Source of the DNA: Thermodesulfovibrionales bacterium
GTDB lineage: Bacteria; Nitrospirota; Thermodesulfovibrionia; Thermodesulfovibrionales; CALJEL01
NCBI GenBank assembly: GCA_046292975.1
Contig: JBKBPW010000001.1
Location: 1 to 46,682 of the forward strand
Length of the DNA: 46,682 nt
Direction: 5' to 3'
Shown here: positions 5,594 to 46,682 of the stretch, one piece after another
Position numbering within the stretch: position 1 is the stretch's first letter
How the letters are laid out: each line of letters begins with the position of its first letter
The notes under the pieces: generated by a model
Database searches by the model: none
The model's input: the letters and a program-made list of their open reading frames with translations, nothing else
What the model was told of the DNA's origin: nothing
Position numbers and translations under genes: made by a program

Positions 5594-6304
5594 ATGGCAA
5601 GTTTAAGTGAAGGGATTTTCAGAAAGGGGTTGGAATTATTTGAAGAGGGCAAATACCTGGAGGCAGAGCCCTATCTGAGAGAAGTTATACGCCAGAATCC
5701 TAAATATGCTGATGTCCAAAACAAGCTCGGTGTAATAGCAAGCATGAAAGGTGAGCTTCAAAAGGCAGTGCAGTACTTTGAGACTGCGCTAAAACTCAAT
5801 CCTTTTTATACAGAGGCACTTCTTAATCTTGCTGTAACTTATAACGAGCTTGGAGAATTTCAGAAGGCACAGGAGGCATTCCAGAATGCCAGACAGCTTG
5901 CAATCAGCGGAAAAAAGAATATAGACCCCTATCTTGCTGGAAAGCTTGCCAATGAGCACTTCAAGCTTGGCAATCTATATTTTGATATGGATCTTTATGA
6001 AGATGCAATAGATGAATATAAAAAGGCCCTTAATCTGAGGTCCAATCTTCCTGATGTGAGGGTAAAGCTTGGTATGGCATTCAGGTTTACAGGCAAGATA
6101 GGGCTTGCTATTCAGGAGTTCATCAAGGCAAAGGAGATAAATCCAAATTTTGTTCAGGCATGGATTCAGCTTGGCATCACCTATTATATGCAAGGGCATA
6201 CGGGCCTTGCTGTTGAGGAATGGAAAAGGGCCCTTGAGATTAACCCTGAACTCAAAGAGGTAAAAACCTATCTATCACTGCTTAAGGCGAAAGATATGTC
6301 ATGA
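5594..6304 (+). CDS. Tetratricopeptide repeat (TPR) protein
   Basis: 236 aa made of repeated 34-residue A/Y/L-patterned units (e.g. AVQYFETALKLNPFYTEALLNLAVTY, AIDEYKKALNLRSNLPD, AVEEWKRALEINPE). Confidence 0.75.
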   Translation: MASLSEGIFRKGLELFEEGKYLEAEPYLREVIRQNPKYADVQNKLGVIASMKGELQKAVQYFETALKLNPFYTEALLNLAVTYNELGEFQKAQEAFQNARQLAISGKKNIDPYLAGKLANEHFKLGNLYFDMDLYEDAIDEYKKALNLRSNLPDVRVKLGMAFRFTGKIGLAIQEFIKAKEINPNFVQAWIQLGITYYMQGHTGLAVEEWKRALEINPELKEVKTYLSLLKAKDMS

Positions 6305-6341
6305 CCTGTGGCGAAATTAACAGTGGCGGCGAAACTAATAA

Positions 6342-7346
6342 ATGTCTGATATCAAAGCATCAACCATTGGTGGCGAGGTAGCAGTCTCTTTTAAAGAAGG
6401 TCTACTTTCCCTTAAAGATCTATCCATATATCTTAAAAGTCCTTATAAGGACCTACCAGTTGTTTCTTCTTTAGATCTCTCCATATCTTTAAGAGAGACA
6501 TTTTGCCTTGTTGGTGAAAGTGGCAGCGGTAAGACAATGACTGCCCTTGCCATTATGGGTCTGCTTCCAGAGAATATGTATCCCAAGGGGGAGATAATTT
6601 ATAAAGGAACCGATCTCTTAAAACTGCTTTCCGATGAGCTCAGAAGGCTGAGGGGGAAAGAGATTGCCATGATTTTTCAGGAACCAATGACATCTCTGAA
6701 CCCTGTGCTTACAATTGGTTATCAGATATCTGAGATGCTTATCACCCATCAGGGGCTCTCAAAGAAAGAGGCCCTGAGAGAGGTGGTTGAGCTTTTAAAA
6801 AAGGTAAACATCCCTTCTCCTGAGGAAAGGTTAAGGTCCTATCCCCATCAGCTTTCAGGCGGGCTGAGACAGAGGGTTATGATTGCCATGGCAATTGCCT
6901 GTAAACCAGGGCTCCTTATAGCAGATGAACCAACAACAGCCCTGGATGTCACAATTCAGGCACAGATCCTTGACCTTCTTGATAGATTAAAGGAAGAGCA
7001 TGGGCTTACTGTGCTTTTAATAACCCATGACCTCGGAATAGTGAGACAGCATTCTCAAAGGGTTGCAGTAATCTACAGAGGTAAGATAATGGAGATAGCA
7101 GAAACAGAGAGATTGTTTTCAAATCCACTGCACCCCTACACAATAGGTCTTCTACATTCACTGCCTGAGGTCCGTGGAAGGGCTTTAAGACCAATCCCTG
7201 GCTCAATACCTTCAATAAAAGATGTGCAAGAAGGATGCTTGTTCAAGGATAGATGTGAGAGGGTTATTGAGGAGTGCAAGATATCTGAACCAGAACTCAG
7301 GGAGATTGAGGAGGGGCATTTTGTAAGATGTCTGAGGGCAGGTTGA
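6342..7346 (+). CDS. ABC transporter ATP-binding protein, oligopeptide/dipeptide (OppD/DppD-like) type
   Basis: Walker A GESGSGKT, signature LSGGLRQR, Walker B LLIADEPTTALD and the C-terminal oligopeptide-ABC extension (HPYT...C..RC). Confidence 0.85.
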   Translation: MSDIKASTIGGEVAVSFKEGLLSLKDLSIYLKSPYKDLPVVSSLDLSISLRETFCLVGESGSGKTMTALAIMGLLPENMYPKGEIIYKGTDLLKLLSDELRRLRGKEIAMIFQEPMTSLNPVLTIGYQISEMLITHQGLSKKEALREVVELLKKVNIPSPEERLRSYPHQLSGGLRQRVMIAMAIACKPGLLIADEPTTALDVTIQAQILDLLDRLKEEHGLTVLLITHDLGIVRQHSQRVAVIYRGKIMEIAETERLFSNPLHPYTIGLLHSLPEVRGRALRPIPGSIPSIKDVQEGCLFKDRCERVIEECKISEPELREIEEGHFVRCLRAG

Positions 7347-7349
7347 GTT

Positions 7350-8291
7350 ATGAAGCTTATAGAGGTAAAAGATCTAAAGAAGTACTTCAAGATTCATGAT
7401 GGCCTGCTTAAGGCTGTTGATGGAGTGAATTTTCATGTCCGAAAGGGTGAGACAGTTGCCCTTGTAGGAGAAAGTGGATGCGGAAAATCTACACTCGCGA
7501 GGCTTGTTGTGAGGCTTCTTGAGCCAACCTCTGGCAGTGTGCTTTTTAAGGAAAAGGAAATATTCAGTCTTAAAGGAGAGGAACTGAGATGGTTCAGGAG
7601 ATCCGTCCAGATAATATTTCAGGATCCCTTTGCATCATTGAATCCGAGACTCAGTATTTTCAGCACACTTTCTGAACCTCTTAAGATTCACAAACTTGTG
7701 CAGAAAAGAGAGAGCAAAGACAGGGTTGCAGAACTCTTAAGATCAGTAGGATTAAGCCCTGATGATATGCACAAATATCCCCATGAATTTAGTGGTGGTC
7801 AGCGACAGAGGATATGTATTGCAAGGGCCTTGAGTGTGAACCCGGAGCTTATTGTTGCTGATGAGCCTCTCTCAAGCCTTGATGTATCTGTTCAAGCTCA
7901 GATATTGAATCTCCTTAATGAACTCAGGACAGGTCAGAACCTTTCCTTCCTCTTCATAAGCCATGACCTGAGGGTTGTGCATTACTTCAGTGATTATGTG
8001 ATGGTGATGTATCTGGGCAGAATAGTGGAAGAGGCTCCAGCAGAGGTGCTTTTTTCAAAGCCACTTCATCCCTATACAGTCATGCTCCTTGAGGCTATTC
8101 CATCAATAACAAAACCTAAAACAAAGAAAGGCCCTTTGAGGATAGATGAGATACCGAGCCCTCTTGATATTCCTTCAGGATGCCCCTTTCATCCAAGGTG
8201 TCCAGAGAAGTTTGAGCCCTGCGATAAAATTACACCTGAGTTCAGCTCAAAGGGTCAGTCAAAGGTAGCCTGCCATCTTTATAATCCGTAG
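7350..8291 (+). CDS. ABC transporter ATP-binding protein, oligopeptide/dipeptide (OppF/DppF-like) type
   Basis: Walker A GESGCGKST, signature FSGGQRQR, Walker B LIVADEPLSSLD and a C-terminal HPYT...GCPFHPRC motif. Confidence 0.85.
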   Translation: MKLIEVKDLKKYFKIHDGLLKAVDGVNFHVRKGETVALVGESGCGKSTLARLVVRLLEPTSGSVLFKEKEIFSLKGEELRWFRRSVQIIFQDPFASLNPRLSIFSTLSEPLKIHKLVQKRESKDRVAELLRSVGLSPDDMHKYPHEFSGGQRQRICIARALSVNPELIVADEPLSSLDVSVQAQILNLLNELRTGQNLSFLFISHDLRVVHYFSDYVMVMYLGRIVEEAPAEVLFSKPLHPYTVMLLEAIPSITKPKTKKGPLRIDEIPSPLDIPSGCPFHPRCPEKFEPCDKITPEFSSKGQSKVACHLYNP

Positions 8292-8352
8292 AGCAGTAGA
8301 CCAAAGAATCGCAAGATTTGGTTTGGGCTGAGAGCAACAGGCATCGGTGAAT

Positions 8353-8438
8353 TGGTGCCGGTGGTGGGATTTGAACCCACATGCCCCGAAGGGCGGGGGA
8401 TTTTGAGTCCCCTGCGTCTGCCATTCCACCACACCGGC
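8353..8438 (-). tRNA. tRNA-Leu (anticodon CAA), long variable arm, CCA encoded
   Basis: The reverse complement reads GCCGGTGTGGTGGAATGGCAGACGCAGGGGACTCAAAATCCCCCGCCCTTCGGGGCATGTGGGTTCAAATCCCACCACCGGCACCA. Acceptor stem GCCGGTG/CACCGGC, anticodon stem GGGGA/TCCCC with CAA, and T-arm GTGGG-TTCAAAT-CCCAC. Confidence 0.9.
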
Positions 8439-8474
8439 TATGAAGAGGTAAGCCTTAGGGCAAAAGGGTATATG

Positions 8475-8675
8475 CTACGATTGTTTATAATGCCTTATAA
8501 AATTCCTTATGCTTCTATCATAAGTCTTCTCTATCTCAGGAGAAAAGAAACAGGCTGGTAATTCTCCATTCTGCCTGTGATAATGAAGACAGTCGCAGCA
8601 CCTTAATTTCTTTGAGCAGGGCTCATAGGTGCAATTGCAGTATTTTTTATTTCTATCAATTCTCGGACAGTCCAT
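8475..8675 (-). CDS. Small Cys-rich protein (DUF6485-like)
   Basis: 66 aa with the motif [21 protein letters not shown]...LPACF. Family assignment is from memory of the CNCTY.PC..KG.CC.C pattern. The ORF overlaps the upstream PilZ gene by 20 nt. Confidence 0.55.
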
Positions 8676-36565: not shown

Positions 36566-37663
36566 GTGTTGAGTTCTAAAATGAAGAAGAAAAAGATTGC
36601 GATTCGCCAAAAGTCTTTAATTGCAGAGGCTGTTACTCCTTATACTGTCTATAATCTTTCTTTTGAAAATATGGTTAACAACATAGTGCAGGGCGACAAC
36701 TTAAGTATCCTACAATTGATACCTGACAACAGTATTAATCTGATAATTACTTCACCCCCTTATTTCAGGCAAAGAGATTATGGTAGTGGCATAGGTAATG
36801 AGAAAACAATTGAAGAATATGTGGAGAATTTGATTCACGTCTTTTCAGAATGTCTTCGTGTCTTGAAAAATGATGGAAGTATCGTATTTAACCTTGGAGA
36901 TAAATACATAGAAGGTAGCCTTCAGTTAATTCCATTCAGATTTGCGTTAGAGGTATTAAACACCTTCCCTGTAAAGCTTGTAAATAATATTACATGGGTA
37001 AAGCTTAACCCGACACCAAGACAGTATCGAAAAAGATTAGTCAGTAGTACCGAACCATTTTTCCATTTTGTAAAAAATGAAGGGTATTACTATAATCTTC
37101 CTGAATATATGGCCAGCAATGGAACTAAAAGTAAACGCGCCAATGGTAATAATATCGGAAAGAGATATTTTGATTTAATTGAAAACTCGGGTCTTACTCT
37201 GGAACAGAAAAAAATGGCACTATGTGAATTGCAGGAAGTAATAGAAGAGGTAAAAAGTGGAAAGATTGAAAGCTTTAGAATGAAGATAAAAGATATTCAT
37301 TCTGCTCCCTTTGGCGGACAAGACGGTGGTAGGAAATATCAACTCATGAAAAAGGGGTTCACTATTATAAAGATTAAAGGAGAACCCATAAAACGAGATG
37401 TTATAGAATGTGCAGTGGAAACTATAAAGGGATGCAAACATCCAGCTATTTATCCTCTTTATATAATAAAGGAACTGATACGATTGCTTTCTCGTCCCAA
37501 TGATATTGTTCTTGATCCATTTGTTGGAAGCGGAACCACTGCGGTTGCAGCGAAGGAGTTAAATAGAAGATACATCGGAATAGACATAAACAGGGAATAT
37601 TGTGAGTATGCGAAGAAAAGACTTGAGGAGACCGAGATAGAGAGTCCCCTGGAGCTTTTTTAA
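36566..37663 (+). CDS. Type II DNA methyltransferase, beta class (motif IV before motif I), probably N4-cytosine
   Basis: 365 aa with motif IV IITSPPYF early and motif I VLDPFVGSGTTAVAA near the C-terminus, preceded by HPAIYPLYIIKELI. SPPY favours m4C over m6A. The start is GTG 36566 or ATG 36581. Confidence 0.85.
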   Translation: MLSSKMKKKKIAIRQKSLIAEAVTPYTVYNLSFENMVNNIVQGDNLSILQLIPDNSINLIITSPPYFRQRDYGSGIGNEKTIEEYVENLIHVFSECLRVLKNDGSIVFNLGDKYIEGSLQLIPFRFALEVLNTFPVKLVNNITWVKLNPTPRQYRKRLVSSTEPFFHFVKNEGYYYNLPEYMASNGTKSKRANGNNIGKRYFDLIENSGLTLEQKKMALCELQEVIEEVKSGKIESFRMKIKDIHSAPFGGQDGGRKYQLMKKGFTIIKIKGEPIKRDVIECAVETIKGCKHPAIYPLYIIKELIRLLSRPNDIVLDPFVGSGTTAVAAKELNRRYIGIDINREYCEYAKKRLEETEIESPLELF

Positions 37664-38809
37664 ATGACAGAATATAAAGGCAAATTGCATTCAGAAATTC
37701 TTAAAAAGATATATCAAGATGCCTTAAAGATAGTTAATGAGGGAACATGTGATCAATTGTGTGCCAGTATAGAGGATGCTGATAGATTAAATCTTCAAAT
37801 AATTATAGATAACTGTGAAAGTAGTAAAGGAGTTTTAACAGTCCTTATAACAAGTCTTATTCATAAATTACATAATCCTGAACAGGATATAAGACGGCAT
37901 CAAGATAATATGGAGGGTGGATATTCTGGAAGAGTTATTGACACTAAATATGTAACCCCTTTTATGAAAGAGATGGGGTTCCCATCGATGGCGGAGAGTG
38001 GTTGGCTTACAAGGTCTTTAGAACAGAATTTGCCATATGACCTTAAATATCCCGGCAAAATAAAACCTGCAGAATTAAAATCTGCATTTTTATATTTACT
38101 TGACCAAATACAAAACCATAACAAATCTCCAGAGGCTTTTCTGCTTTTCTTATTTGCAAAACTGATAGAACATCGGGAACAGAAGAAGATTGAATTGGCA
38201 AAGCCTATAAACTTGCCAATATCAACGATTATAGATTACCTCAAACAACACTTCGAGTCAAAATACAATTCTAGGGGAGCAGCCCGGCTACCAACGCTGG
38301 CTATTTATGCGATATATCAATGCATGACTAAAGAGTTAAAAAGATTTAAAGGGAAGATATTGATGCCCTTAGAAGAACATACATCCTCTGATAAAAGCTC
38401 TGGCAGAGTTGGTGATGTGGAAGTTAGGCATCCTGATAACACTGTCTTTGAGGCGGTAGAGATTAAACATGGCATAGCGATTAATGCCCGACTTGTCAGA
38501 GATGCTTATGAAAAATTTGAAGCTCATCCAATACAAAGGTATTATCTATTGTCTACAACAGACATTAACCCGTCTGATATGGAAAACCTAACAAACGAAG
38601 TATTTAGAATACTAAAAATTCATGGTTGCCAAGTAATTGTAAATGGCATTTATCCATCATTAAAATATTATTTACGGCTCCTTCATAATACCTATGATTT
38701 CATTGATAACTATGTAGAGAATTTGAAAAATGATAAGACTATAAAGTATGAACATAAATTAAGATGGAATGATATTGTAAGTTTTCAAAGTTCACGAGGA
38801 TTGAAATGA
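37664..38809 (+). CDS. Putative type II restriction endonuclease (PD-(D/E)xK-like)
   Basis: 381 aa with no family recognised. A candidate catalytic motif is GDVEV...(11 aa)...EAVEIK. The ORF starts 1 nt after the methyltransferase stop (TAAATG). Confidence 0.55.
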   Translation: MTEYKGKLHSEILKKIYQDALKIVNEGTCDQLCASIEDADRLNLQIIIDNCESSKGVLTVLITSLIHKLHNPEQDIRRHQDNMEGGYSGRVIDTKYVTPFMKEMGFPSMAESGWLTRSLEQNLPYDLKYPGKIKPAELKSAFLYLLDQIQNHNKSPEAFLLFLFAKLIEHREQKKIELAKPINLPISTIIDYLKQHFESKYNSRGAARLPTLAIYAIYQCMTKELKRFKGKILMPLEEHTSSDKSSGRVGDVEVRHPDNTVFEAVEIKHGIAINARLVRDAYEKFEAHPIQRYYLLSTTDINPSDMENLTNEVFRILKIHGCQVIVNGIYPSLKYYLRLLHNTYDFIDNYVENLKNDKTIKYEHKLRWNDIVSFQSSRGLK

Positions 38810-44360: not shown

Positions 44361-45680
44361 ATGGCTAAGAAGAAGGCAACAAGAAAGGCTCCTGCTGCAT
44401 CTGCCAAGAAAAGGGCTGCAGCAAAAGTTGACAACTCCCTCTCTCCTCATGGTGGAAAGCTTGTAAACAGGGTTATTGAGGACAGGGAAAAGGCACGGAA
44501 GCTTGCCAGCAAGGCTAAGGTTGAGCTTCCAATCAGAGACCAGCATGCAAGGGAAATAGTGAGTATGGCTTATGGATTCTTTTCTCCCCTTGATGGCTTT
44601 ATGAAAGAGGCAGATGTTGCAAGCATCTGTAAGAAGATGACCCTTGCGAGTGGTTATGTCTGGAGCATTCCTATTGTGTTTGACCTTTCTGATGAAGAGA
44701 TTAAATCAATGGGAATTAAGGAAGGAGATATGATACTTCTCAAGTACCAGAATCAGCCCTTTGCAACCCTTGATGTTGAGGAGATCTATTCCTTTGACAA
44801 AAAACTGATGGCAGTAAGTGTCTATGGAACAGATGAAGAAAAGCATCCTGGTGTGAAGAGGACCTATCAGTATAAGGATAAATTCCTTGGTGGAAGGATT
44901 ACCCTTATAAATCCTCCGAGGATAAACCCTCCTTTTGACAGATTCTGGTATCCACCTGCTAAGTCCAGAGAGAAATTTAAGGAACTGGGCTGGAAGAGGG
45001 CAGTTGCCCATCAGACAAGGAATGTGCCCCATACAGGCCATGAATGGCTCATGAAAGGTGCATGGTTTGAGGCCCAGACTGATGTTGGACCAAATGAATG
45101 CGGTGTCCTTGTTAATTGCGTTGTAGGTGAAAAGCGTAAGGGTGATTATATTGATGAGGCAATTGTGCTTAGTCATGCAGCCCTTGGAGAGCATGGATAT
45201 TTCAAACAAGGAACACATATGGTCTCTATCCTTCTCTGGGATATGAGATATGCAGGTCCTAAAGAGGCAATATTCCATGCAATAGTTAGAAAGAATATGG
45301 GATGCACCCATCATATGTTTGGCCGCGACCATGCAGGTGTTGGTGATTACTATGACAAGTATGCAGCCCATGAGATCTTCTCAAAGATACCAAATCTTGG
45401 AATAAAATCAGTGCTCACACTTGAATGGTGGTACTGTCCAACCTGCGCAGAGGTCACCTATGAAGGCCTTTGTGGACACAAGCCACAGAAGTTCAGTGGT
45501 AGTGTCTTAAGGAGCATACTCCTTGATGGAGTAAAACCAACAAGGCTTGTGATGAGACCAGAGGTCTTTGATGTAGTCATGATGGCTGCTGAGAAGTATG
45601 GATTTGGAAGTCCCTTTGTGGATGATAGATACCTTGCTCAGAGAAATGAAGTAATGACAGTTCCACCAATGGAGGTGTAA
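44361..45680 (+). CDS. sat: Sulfate adenylyltransferase (dissimilatory ATP sulfurylase) with Lys/Ala-rich N-terminal extension
   Basis: 439 aa with PHGGKLVNR, HQTRNVPHTGH (QxRNxxHxxH) and GRDHAGVG. The first 25 or so residues read MAKKKATRKAPAASAKKRAAAKVDN. Confidence 0.9.
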   Translation: MAKKKATRKAPAASAKKRAAAKVDNSLSPHGGKLVNRVIEDREKARKLASKAKVELPIRDQHAREIVSMAYGFFSPLDGFMKEADVASICKKMTLASGYVWSIPIVFDLSDEEIKSMGIKEGDMILLKYQNQPFATLDVEEIYSFDKKLMAVSVYGTDEEKHPGVKRTYQYKDKFLGGRITLINPPRINPPFDRFWYPPAKSREKFKELGWKRAVAHQTRNVPHTGHEWLMKGAWFEAQTDVGPNECGVLVNCVVGEKRKGDYIDEAIVLSHAALGEHGYFKQGTHMVSILLWDMRYAGPKEAIFHAIVRKNMGCTHHMFGRDHAGVGDYYDKYAAHEIFSKIPNLGIKSVLTLEWWYCPTCAEVTYEGLCGHKPQKFSGSVLRSILLDGVKPTRLVMRPEVFDVVMMAAEKYGFGSPFVDDRYLAQRNEVMTVPPMEV

Positions 45681-45987: not shown

Positions 45988-46004
45988 AGACCTCATGGAG
46001 GTCT
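45988..46004 (+). other. Intercistronic stem-loop (AGACCTC-ATG-GAGGTCT)
   Basis: A perfect 7-bp stem with a 3-nt loop lies 3 nt after the stop of the 100-aa ORF and 30 nt before the aprB ATG. There is no T-tract, so it is not a classic terminator. Confidence 0.3.
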
Positions 46005-46033: not shown

Positions 46034-46682
46034 ATGCCAAGTTATGTTATTACTGAGAAATGCGATGGCTGTAAGGCCCAGGATAAGACAGCATGCCAGT
46101 ACATCTGTCCTCATGACCTGATGACCCTTGACAGGGAAAAGATGAAGGCATACAATCAGGAACCTGAGCAGTGCTGGGAATGTTACAACTGTGTAAAGAT
46201 CTGTCCACAGCAGGCTATTGAGGTAAGGGGTTATGCAGACTATATCCCCCTTGGTGGAAGCGTTTATCCGATGAGAGGAACAGACTCCATTATGTGGACA
46301 ATAAAGTTCAGAAATGGGGTTATCAAGAGATTCAAATTCCCGATAAGGTTGACACCTGAGGGTTCAATTGATCCCTATGCAGGGCTTCCAGAGCCGGATT
46401 ATTCAAAGATCAAACAGCCTGGCTACTTTAAGAAGCCACCTGTTGTTGAGGTGGAGACAGATTTTCTTATAATTGGTGGTGGAATGGCTGCCTGCGGTGC
46501 TGCCTTTGAGGCATGCAGATGGGCAAACCCAAAGAAGATAAGGGTAACCATGGTTGACAAGGCCGCCACTGACCGTAGTGGTGCAGTTGCAATGGGTCTC
46601 AGTGCTATTAATACCTATATGGGTGGAAACAAGGTTGCAGACTACGTTAAGGATGTAAGAAATGACCTCATGGGCATAATCA
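46034..46682 (+). CDS. aprBA: Adenylylsulfate (APS) reductase: AprB-type Fe-S domain continuing in frame into the AprA flavoprotein N-terminus (3' partial)
   Basis: A GGAGGA RBS precedes the ATG. AprB motifs are CDGCK...CQYICP, CWECYNCVKICP and MWTIKFRNG..KRFKFPIR. The frame then reads VVEVETDFLIIGGGMAACGAAFEA...DRSGAVAMGLSAINTY with no intervening stop codon in a hand translation. The frame is open at the window end. Confidence 0.85.
   Translation, partial: MPSYVITEKCDGCKAQDKTACQYICPHDLMTLDREKMKAYNQEPEQCWECYNCVKICPQQAIEVRGYADYIPLGGSVYPMRGTDSIMWTIKFRNGVIKRFKFPIRLTPEGSIDPYAGLPEPDYSKIKQPGYFKKPPVVEVETDFLIIGGGMAACGAAFEACRWANPKKIRVTMVDKAATDRSGAVAMGLSAINTYMGGNKVADYVKDVRNDLMGII

Follow-up and report, generated by a model that had tools for sequence, protein, structure and literature searches.

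An aprB-aprA reading frame lacking 69 nt at the gene boundary, found on one contig of a Thermodesulfovibrionales bacterium

Fused reading frame and operon context

In this work, we analyzed 46,682 nt of DNA from a Thermodesulfovibrionales bacterium (GenBank assembly GCA_046292975.1; contig JBKBPW010000001.1, positions 1 to 46,682, forward strand), hereafter referred to as the window. Near the 3′ end of the window, sat and a DUF6955 gene are followed by a single open frame that joins aprB- and aprA-derived sequences. The features of this region are as follows:

44361..45680, + strand: sat (ATP sulfurylase); Pfam PUA_2 and ATP-sulfurylase, E 1e-74; position matched in L003 and L005
45682..45984, + strand: DUF6955 gene (100 aa) between sat and aprB; PF22271, E 2.6e-29; kept in L003, L004, and L005
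46020..46024, + strand: Shine-Dalgarno GGAGG, 9 nt 5′ of the aprB ATG, read from the sequence
46034..46682, + strand: fused aprB-aprA frame, open at the window end; from translation, profiles, and PDB matches 1JNR_B and 3GYX_A
46034..46431, + strand: aprB-derived part (AprB 1-132 plus 2 nt) with the cluster Cys, Trp48, the beta-sheet segment, and tail residues 105-132
46432..46682, + strand: aprA-derived part, from the equivalent of AprA residue 12/13 (KPPVVEVETDFLIIGGGMAACG...), with the FAD-binding GxGxxG; cut by the window end at ...RNDLMGII

Translation from the ATG at 46034 gives 216 sense codons without a stop up to the last base of the window, and the remaining two frames across 46034-46682 are stop-rich. 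The order within this frame is AprB (aa 1-132) followed directly by AprA (from aa 133). For the former, aa 1-122 match the NCBIfam model TIGR02060 (aprB) with 211.6 bits, above the equivalog cutoff of 135.65, and aa 64-140 match Pfam APS-reductase_C (PF12139; 103.3 bits, cutoff 25); Pfam also detects two ferredoxin-type cluster motifs. For the latter, aa 143-216 match TIGR02061 (aprA; E 5e-26) in the same frame as aprB; the window contains 84 AprA residues, which give 91.3 bits against positions 1-78 of the 616-position model, the cutoff of 641.75 applying to the full-length protein. The match of a single frame to two unrelated profiles excludes an open frame arising by chance. The original prediction that AprB runs stop-free into AprA is thus borne out, and its residue numbers hold (LPEP at 118-121 and ETD at 141-143, with 19 residues between them).

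Comparison with known structures supports the same assignment. The residues aa 1-138 align without gaps to residues 1-138 of A. fulgidus AprB (1JNR_B; E 9e-63), and aa 133-216 align with residues 14-99 of D. gigas AprA (3GYX_A). All eight AprB cluster Cys (C10, C13, C21, C25, C47, C50, C53, and C57) and W48 are present according to the translation and the ungapped alignment to 1JNR_B; Trp-B48 of A. fulgidus AprB is the electron-relay Trp (PMC2211403). The AprA part contains the FAD-binding beta-alpha-beta unit with GxGxxG (DFLIIGGGMAACGAA), aligned to 3GYX_A and 1JNR_A. The canonical AprBA enzymes (A. fulgidus 1JNR/2FJA and D. gigas 3GYX) and the window are therefore alike in the cofactor parts of both subunits, in the B-then-A order, and in having sat upstream. 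However, canonical AprBA is a 1:1 heterodimer, whereas the window product would be one chain with no stop, spacer, or aprA start, and its AprB lacks the last 7 residues and its AprA the first ~12.

The A. fulgidus AprB is divided into a ferredoxin segment (B1-68), a beta-sheet segment (B69-104), and a 50-Å tail (B105-148) (Meyer and Kuever, PMC2211403). According to this division, the segment RLTPEGSIDPYAGLPEP, which had earlier been labeled as core, already belongs to the tail. The window AprB keeps tail residues 105-132 with the conserved KQPGYF, corresponding to 28 of the ~35 tail residues of relatives. What AprB has lost is its free C-terminus with the last 7 residues, which are variable. 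This retention contradicts the earlier proposal that a covalent link replaces the tail.

Regarding the genomic context, the genes located 5′ of the fused frame are adk, sat, and the DUF6955 gene (Pfam), and an identical copy of the DUF6955 gene is found in Logan contig L001. The contig L005 (FWPU01007219.1) is fully syntenic (dnaE-accA-adk-sat-DUF6955-aprB-aprA-qmoABC); its qmoABC-like genes lie 3′ of aprA, and the window ends inside the aprA part. Most probably, this is an ordinary dissimilatory operon (sat-DUF6955-aprB-aprA) belonging to an uncultured, Thermodesulfovibrionales-like member of the Nitrospirota. The DUF6955 gene is conserved between sat and aprB in the clade (L003:5590-5889, L004:335-634, and L005:5659-5955), and its start abuts or overlaps the sat stop, which suggests translational coupling. 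This uncharacterized protein is an operon-linked candidate accessory of the Sat/Apr step. A perfect 7-bp hairpin (AGACCTC-ATG-GAGGTCT, 45988-46004, + strand) lies after the DUF6955 stop and before the ribosome-binding site of aprB, and it may act in mRNA processing or stability; it has no T-run after it and was not called as a terminator. Further upstream, before dnaE, a gene for an N6/N4 DNA methylase (PF01555) precedes an ORF of 381 aa that matches no Pfam family (36566-38809, + strand), and the two may represent an inserted restriction-modification pair.

The 69-nt deletion

In a scan of one genome per GTDB species, the nearest relative of the window was L013 (CALJEL010000047.1), with 90.3% nt identity over the 3.4 kb upstream. 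Compared with L013, exactly 69 nt are absent from the window (L013 3399-3467), in frame, at the following position:

46424..46438, + strand: deletion junction CTACTTTAA/GAAGCC, placed by alignments to L013, L014, L005, and L003; breakpoint 46431/46432, with an ambiguity of 1 nt

The missing stretch includes the last 7 codons (NYEAKKE) and the TAA stop of aprB, a 12-nt spacer with the aprA ribosome-binding site, and the ATG and first ~12 codons of aprA (MEKETCTFSYCQ). L013 reads ...KQPGYFNYEAKKE up to the stop, then GGAGGTGTGACG, and then MEKETCTFSYCQKPPVVEVETD, whereas the window reads ...KQPGYF-K-KPPVVEVETD across the junction; the undeleted form would read ...TTTAATTATGAAGCC...TAA...ATGGAAAAAGAA.... 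Codon 133 (AAG) combines bases of aprB AAT and aprA CAG. Identity to L013 is complete for ~17 nt before the junction and 52 nt after it, and the 69-nt gap recurs in the alignments to L003, L004, L005, and L014. The deletion spares all conserved blocks, with AprB kept through K-x-P-G-[YF]-F and AprA kept from K-P-x-V-V. The predicted tryptic peptides spanning the junction of the fused chain would be QPGYFK / KPPVVEVETDFLIIGGGMAACGAAFEACR.

Short imperfect direct repeats are present at the breakpoints. The sequences TACTTTAA and TACTGTCA precede the two breakpoints, GAAGCC is found at or just downstream of each, and the two BLAST segments against L013 overlap in the window by 15 nt, exactly at 46424-46438. 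Short repeats flanking breakpoints are the usual signature of slipped-strand or microhomology-mediated deletion, and judged from the sequence, the junction is apparently the footprint of a microhomology-flanked deletion. In the scenario that we propose, a single 69-nt deletion would have removed the aprB/aprA boundary of an ordinary operon, by a slipped-strand or microhomology-mediated route between the short repeats. Because 69 is a multiple of 3, the product would be a single chain, AprB(1-132)-AprA(from ~residue 13), in which the two parts are joined without an extra linker. The breakpoints are also surrounded by an inverted repeat, and we considered hairpin-mediated slippage as well; this was rejected because the repeat is weak and its fold is no more stable than that of shuffled sequence (z = -0.9).

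Distribution of the junction and of apparent fusions

A stop codon ends aprB in 83 of the 83 related loci compared (L003, L005, L013-L092, and L093), among which L013-L092 are the 80 loci obtained from the scan of one genome per GTDB species. An aprA with its own Met, placed 6-78 nt past aprB, was found in 71 of these 83, and all of the 80 scanned loci are at least 69 nt longer than the window over the aprB-aprA stretch. The genes are separate with spacers of 12 nt in L013, 15 nt in L005, 18 nt in L003 and L004 (JGI), and 22 nt in L093. The nearest relatives (L013, L014, L005, L003/L004, and L093) and the window have the same flanking genes, and in both aprB and aprA the window is 95% identical to L013 at the nt level. 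However, these relatives carry ...KQPGYF-NYEAKKE with a stop, a 12-22 nt spacer with GGAGG, and MEKETCTFSYC[QAK][KR]P..., and the window is without exactly that segment.

Searches beyond these loci did not recover the junction. A degenerate DNA pattern of the junction had 0 matches in 185,579 species-representative genomes (GTDB), and its 7 matches in JGI metagenome contigs all arose by chance in unrelated contexts. In a collection of 5.8 billion proteins, nothing spanned the junction, neither a whole protein nor a fragment, and no fused protein of ~780 aa was found among the best 150 of 839 representative matches in a HMMER scan of 1.84 billion proteins. Searches centered on the junction and on the AprB C-terminus found no same-strain fragment; the best match in the fragment search, P0381 (on L093), was rejected because it comes from another strain with separate genes. 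The homologs from the protein searches are nearly all stand-alone AprB of 135-148 aa. We found no report of a fused AprBA in the literature searched, which agrees with the original prediction that such a fusion would be unusual, and a survey of archaeal fusion/fission families lists none in the dissimilatory pathway (PMC11237513).

Among the fetched loci from L013-L092 with a placeable aprA, the aprB-aprA spacer is a multiple of 3 in 70 out of 70, which places aprA in the frame of aprB. The excess most likely reflects a bias in how tblastn ranks matches to a fused query, given that the independently found L093 has a 22-nt spacer. In many relatives, the in-frame spacer is one point mutation short of read-through, yet fusion is fixed in 0 of 83, which suggests that fusions are not favored. 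Taken together, the sequence comparisons indicate that the fusion is private to one contig and recent, rather than an evolved architecture at the lineage level, and the idea of an evolved natural fusion does not hold against the stop in every relative and the spacer and aprA Met in 71 of them. The lineage as a whole keeps the ordinary two-gene enzyme. The original prediction had also envisaged that a near-identical genome might show a stop codon, or a 1-2 nt indel restoring one, between aprB and aprA. The stop is indeed present in L013, but the difference is a 69-nt deletion and not a 1-2 nt indel, and L013 is a sister species and not the same strain.

Several public proteins also combine AprB and AprA in one called ORF (P0001, P0260, P0270, P0277, and P0279). 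These keep the translated spacer and the AprA Met and carry frameshift junk or a second break, whereas the window has a clean in-frame deletion. For P0001 (367 aa, 100% query coverage), the +1 frame restores ...KPMPVIKK with a stop followed by GGAGG, and aprA is broken by a second frameshift. The candidates P0260, P0270, P0277, P0279, and P0347 were likewise rejected as fusions because each has either a translated spacer with the AprA Met or frameshift junk. The contig L002 (ENA ERZ25039513 contig_44405; 6001-8488) has a number of single-base indels; aprB continues without a stop into aprA, which is itself broken into ORFs of 367 aa and 450 aa, and qmoA and a Ham1-like gene are split as well. 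L002 resembles the product of error-prone long-read assembly, and its "fusion" proteins have entered public protein collections.

Two other proteins differ from this pattern. P0073 (NCBI; 1,620-nt contig) has AprA residues 1-86 joined to AprB from ~residue 31, at an "NDLM" motif common to both subunits. The window also ends at the AprA motif ...RNDLMGII (46661-46681), which suggests that this shared short motif is perhaps a trouble spot for assembly. In P0304 (226 aa), a two-cluster ferredoxin domain runs straight into the AprA FAD motif GGGMAGCG without the AprB beta-sheet/tail segment; this may be a chimera as well, or a real architecture of a different kind.

Origin of the junction and consequences for the enzyme

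We lean slightly toward the view that the 69-nt deletion is a real and recent strain-level allele. Both halves of the frame are similarly diverged from L013, with nt identities of 94.9% for the aprB part (15 synonymous and 3 non-synonymous codon changes) and 95.2% for the aprA part (11 and 1, respectively). The changes are mostly synonymous (26 vs. 4 non-synonymous), which points to one genome, and we rejected a strain chimera because of the equal divergence. Composition does not change abruptly at the junction, the other scanned genes of the window are full length, and the contig runs through the junction unbroken, with a deletion that is exact, co-linear, on the same strand, and in frame. 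Where the contig can be checked, it is free of errors, since the independent Logan contig L001 (SRR31360863) is 100% identical to the window over 2,103 nt. The imperfect repeats of 6-8 nt should be too short to mislead a k-mer assembler through de Bruijn collapse, and presumably also too short for PCR recombination.

The main alternative is a technical artefact, in which the organism has a normal separate aprB and aprA and the gap arose either in a read (chimeric or template-switched) or during assembly, as a local error at the low-coverage end of a contig within a conserved, strain-tangled gene. We regard this as a serious possibility, if a somewhat doubtful one. The junction is a single observation that sits 250 nt from the window end, which is about one read length and lies where local assembly errors concentrate. 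L001, the only other contig found for this strain, breaks at window position 46237 inside aprB, 195 nt short of the junction; it neither confirms nor refutes the deletion, and the break itself points to a graph tangle. The junction has no second occurrence in any collection searched, five of six other inspected ORFs that cross from AprB to AprA are indel or read-through errors, and P0073 demonstrates that a reverse-order AprA-AprB chimera exists in public data. The inverted repeat around the breakpoints could promote polymerase jumping in vitro, although, as noted above, its hairpin is no more stable than shuffled sequence. Against an artefact stand the unbroken and exactly in-frame state of the contig, its freedom from errors where it can be checked, and the shortness of the microhomology, and these observations incline us toward the allele. 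A third explanation is an evolved and selected single-polypeptide APS reductase typical of the lineage, with a covalent link replacing the AprB tail. The open frame and the intactness of all cofactor motifs visible in the window fit this idea, but 83 of 83 relatives have separate genes, including the sister species at ~90% nt identity, the sequence on both sides of the junction is that of the unfused L013, with no adaptation of a linker, the AprB tail is retained, and the HMMER scan described above yielded no fused protein. Such an origin is very improbable.

If the allele is real, the cell would have only the single chain. No plausible internal start for a separate AprA was found in the window: the ribosome-binding site and start codon of aprA are missing, the first in-frame ATG after the junction falls within GxGxxG itself, and codon 140, a GTG, is not preceded by a Shine-Dalgarno sequence that could be used. 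The deletion (46431/46432) also removed the AprA N-terminal motif MEKE[TS]C-T-F-S-[YF]-C (C-x4-C), which is conserved in ~25 loci of the Nitrospirota/Thermodesulfovibrionales-type clade, being located at L013:3433-3468 and at the aprA starts of L003, L005, L014-L041, and L082. A variant, EFCKWSFC, occurs in L082 and P0312. The AprA proteins of A. fulgidus, D. gigas, and proteobacteria are without this motif, and in other clades AprA has a much shorter N-terminus. The motif might bind a metal, act in redox chemistry, or serve in docking a partner.

Provided that the allele is real, the sequence suggests that the single chain would more probably work than fail. The cofactor elements are kept, as is the conserved stretch of the AprB tail; the deleted AprB end is variable, the AprA N-terminus of other clades is shorter, and the 19 residues that separate LPEP from ETD could bridge the gap as a tether. 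The loss of a clade-conserved AprA motif argues against an unharmed enzyme, and this loss, together with the absence of a fixed fusion in any lineage examined, argues against a selective advantage. That the strain truly lives with AprB(1-132)-AprA(from ~residue 13) as its only copy of the enzyme is, in our view, rather unlikely. A distant homolog of both halves, the PAPS reductase of Methanothermococcus thermolithotrophicus (8A8O; E 1.5e-9 for beta and 1.6e-8 for alpha), is an assimilatory two-subunit enzyme that acts on PAPS, with separate chains; its beta subunit of 104 aa leaves no room for a long AprB tail.

As an architecture, a fused AprBA is unreported in the literature searched, and the case described here comes from a single unverified junction close to the end of a contig. 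If the junction is an artefact, it would provide a clean in-frame example beside the frameshift "fusions" in public protein sets, and such entries would not be new architectures; because aprBA is a widely used marker, flagging artefactual fusions has practical value. Either way, the picture of the pathway is unchanged. If the allele is real and active, it would be a natural experiment showing that AprB and AprA tolerate covalent linkage; folding, the uptake of FAD and two [4Fe-4S] clusters, and activity would all be possible for the heterodimer in single-chain form. The conserved Cys motif (CX4C) at the AprA N-terminus of this clade would then be dispensable. Furthermore, the AprB C-terminus and the AprA N-terminus could be brought together, which would help in understanding the arrangement of the tail and the two termini and would be useful for engineering single-chain APS reductases.
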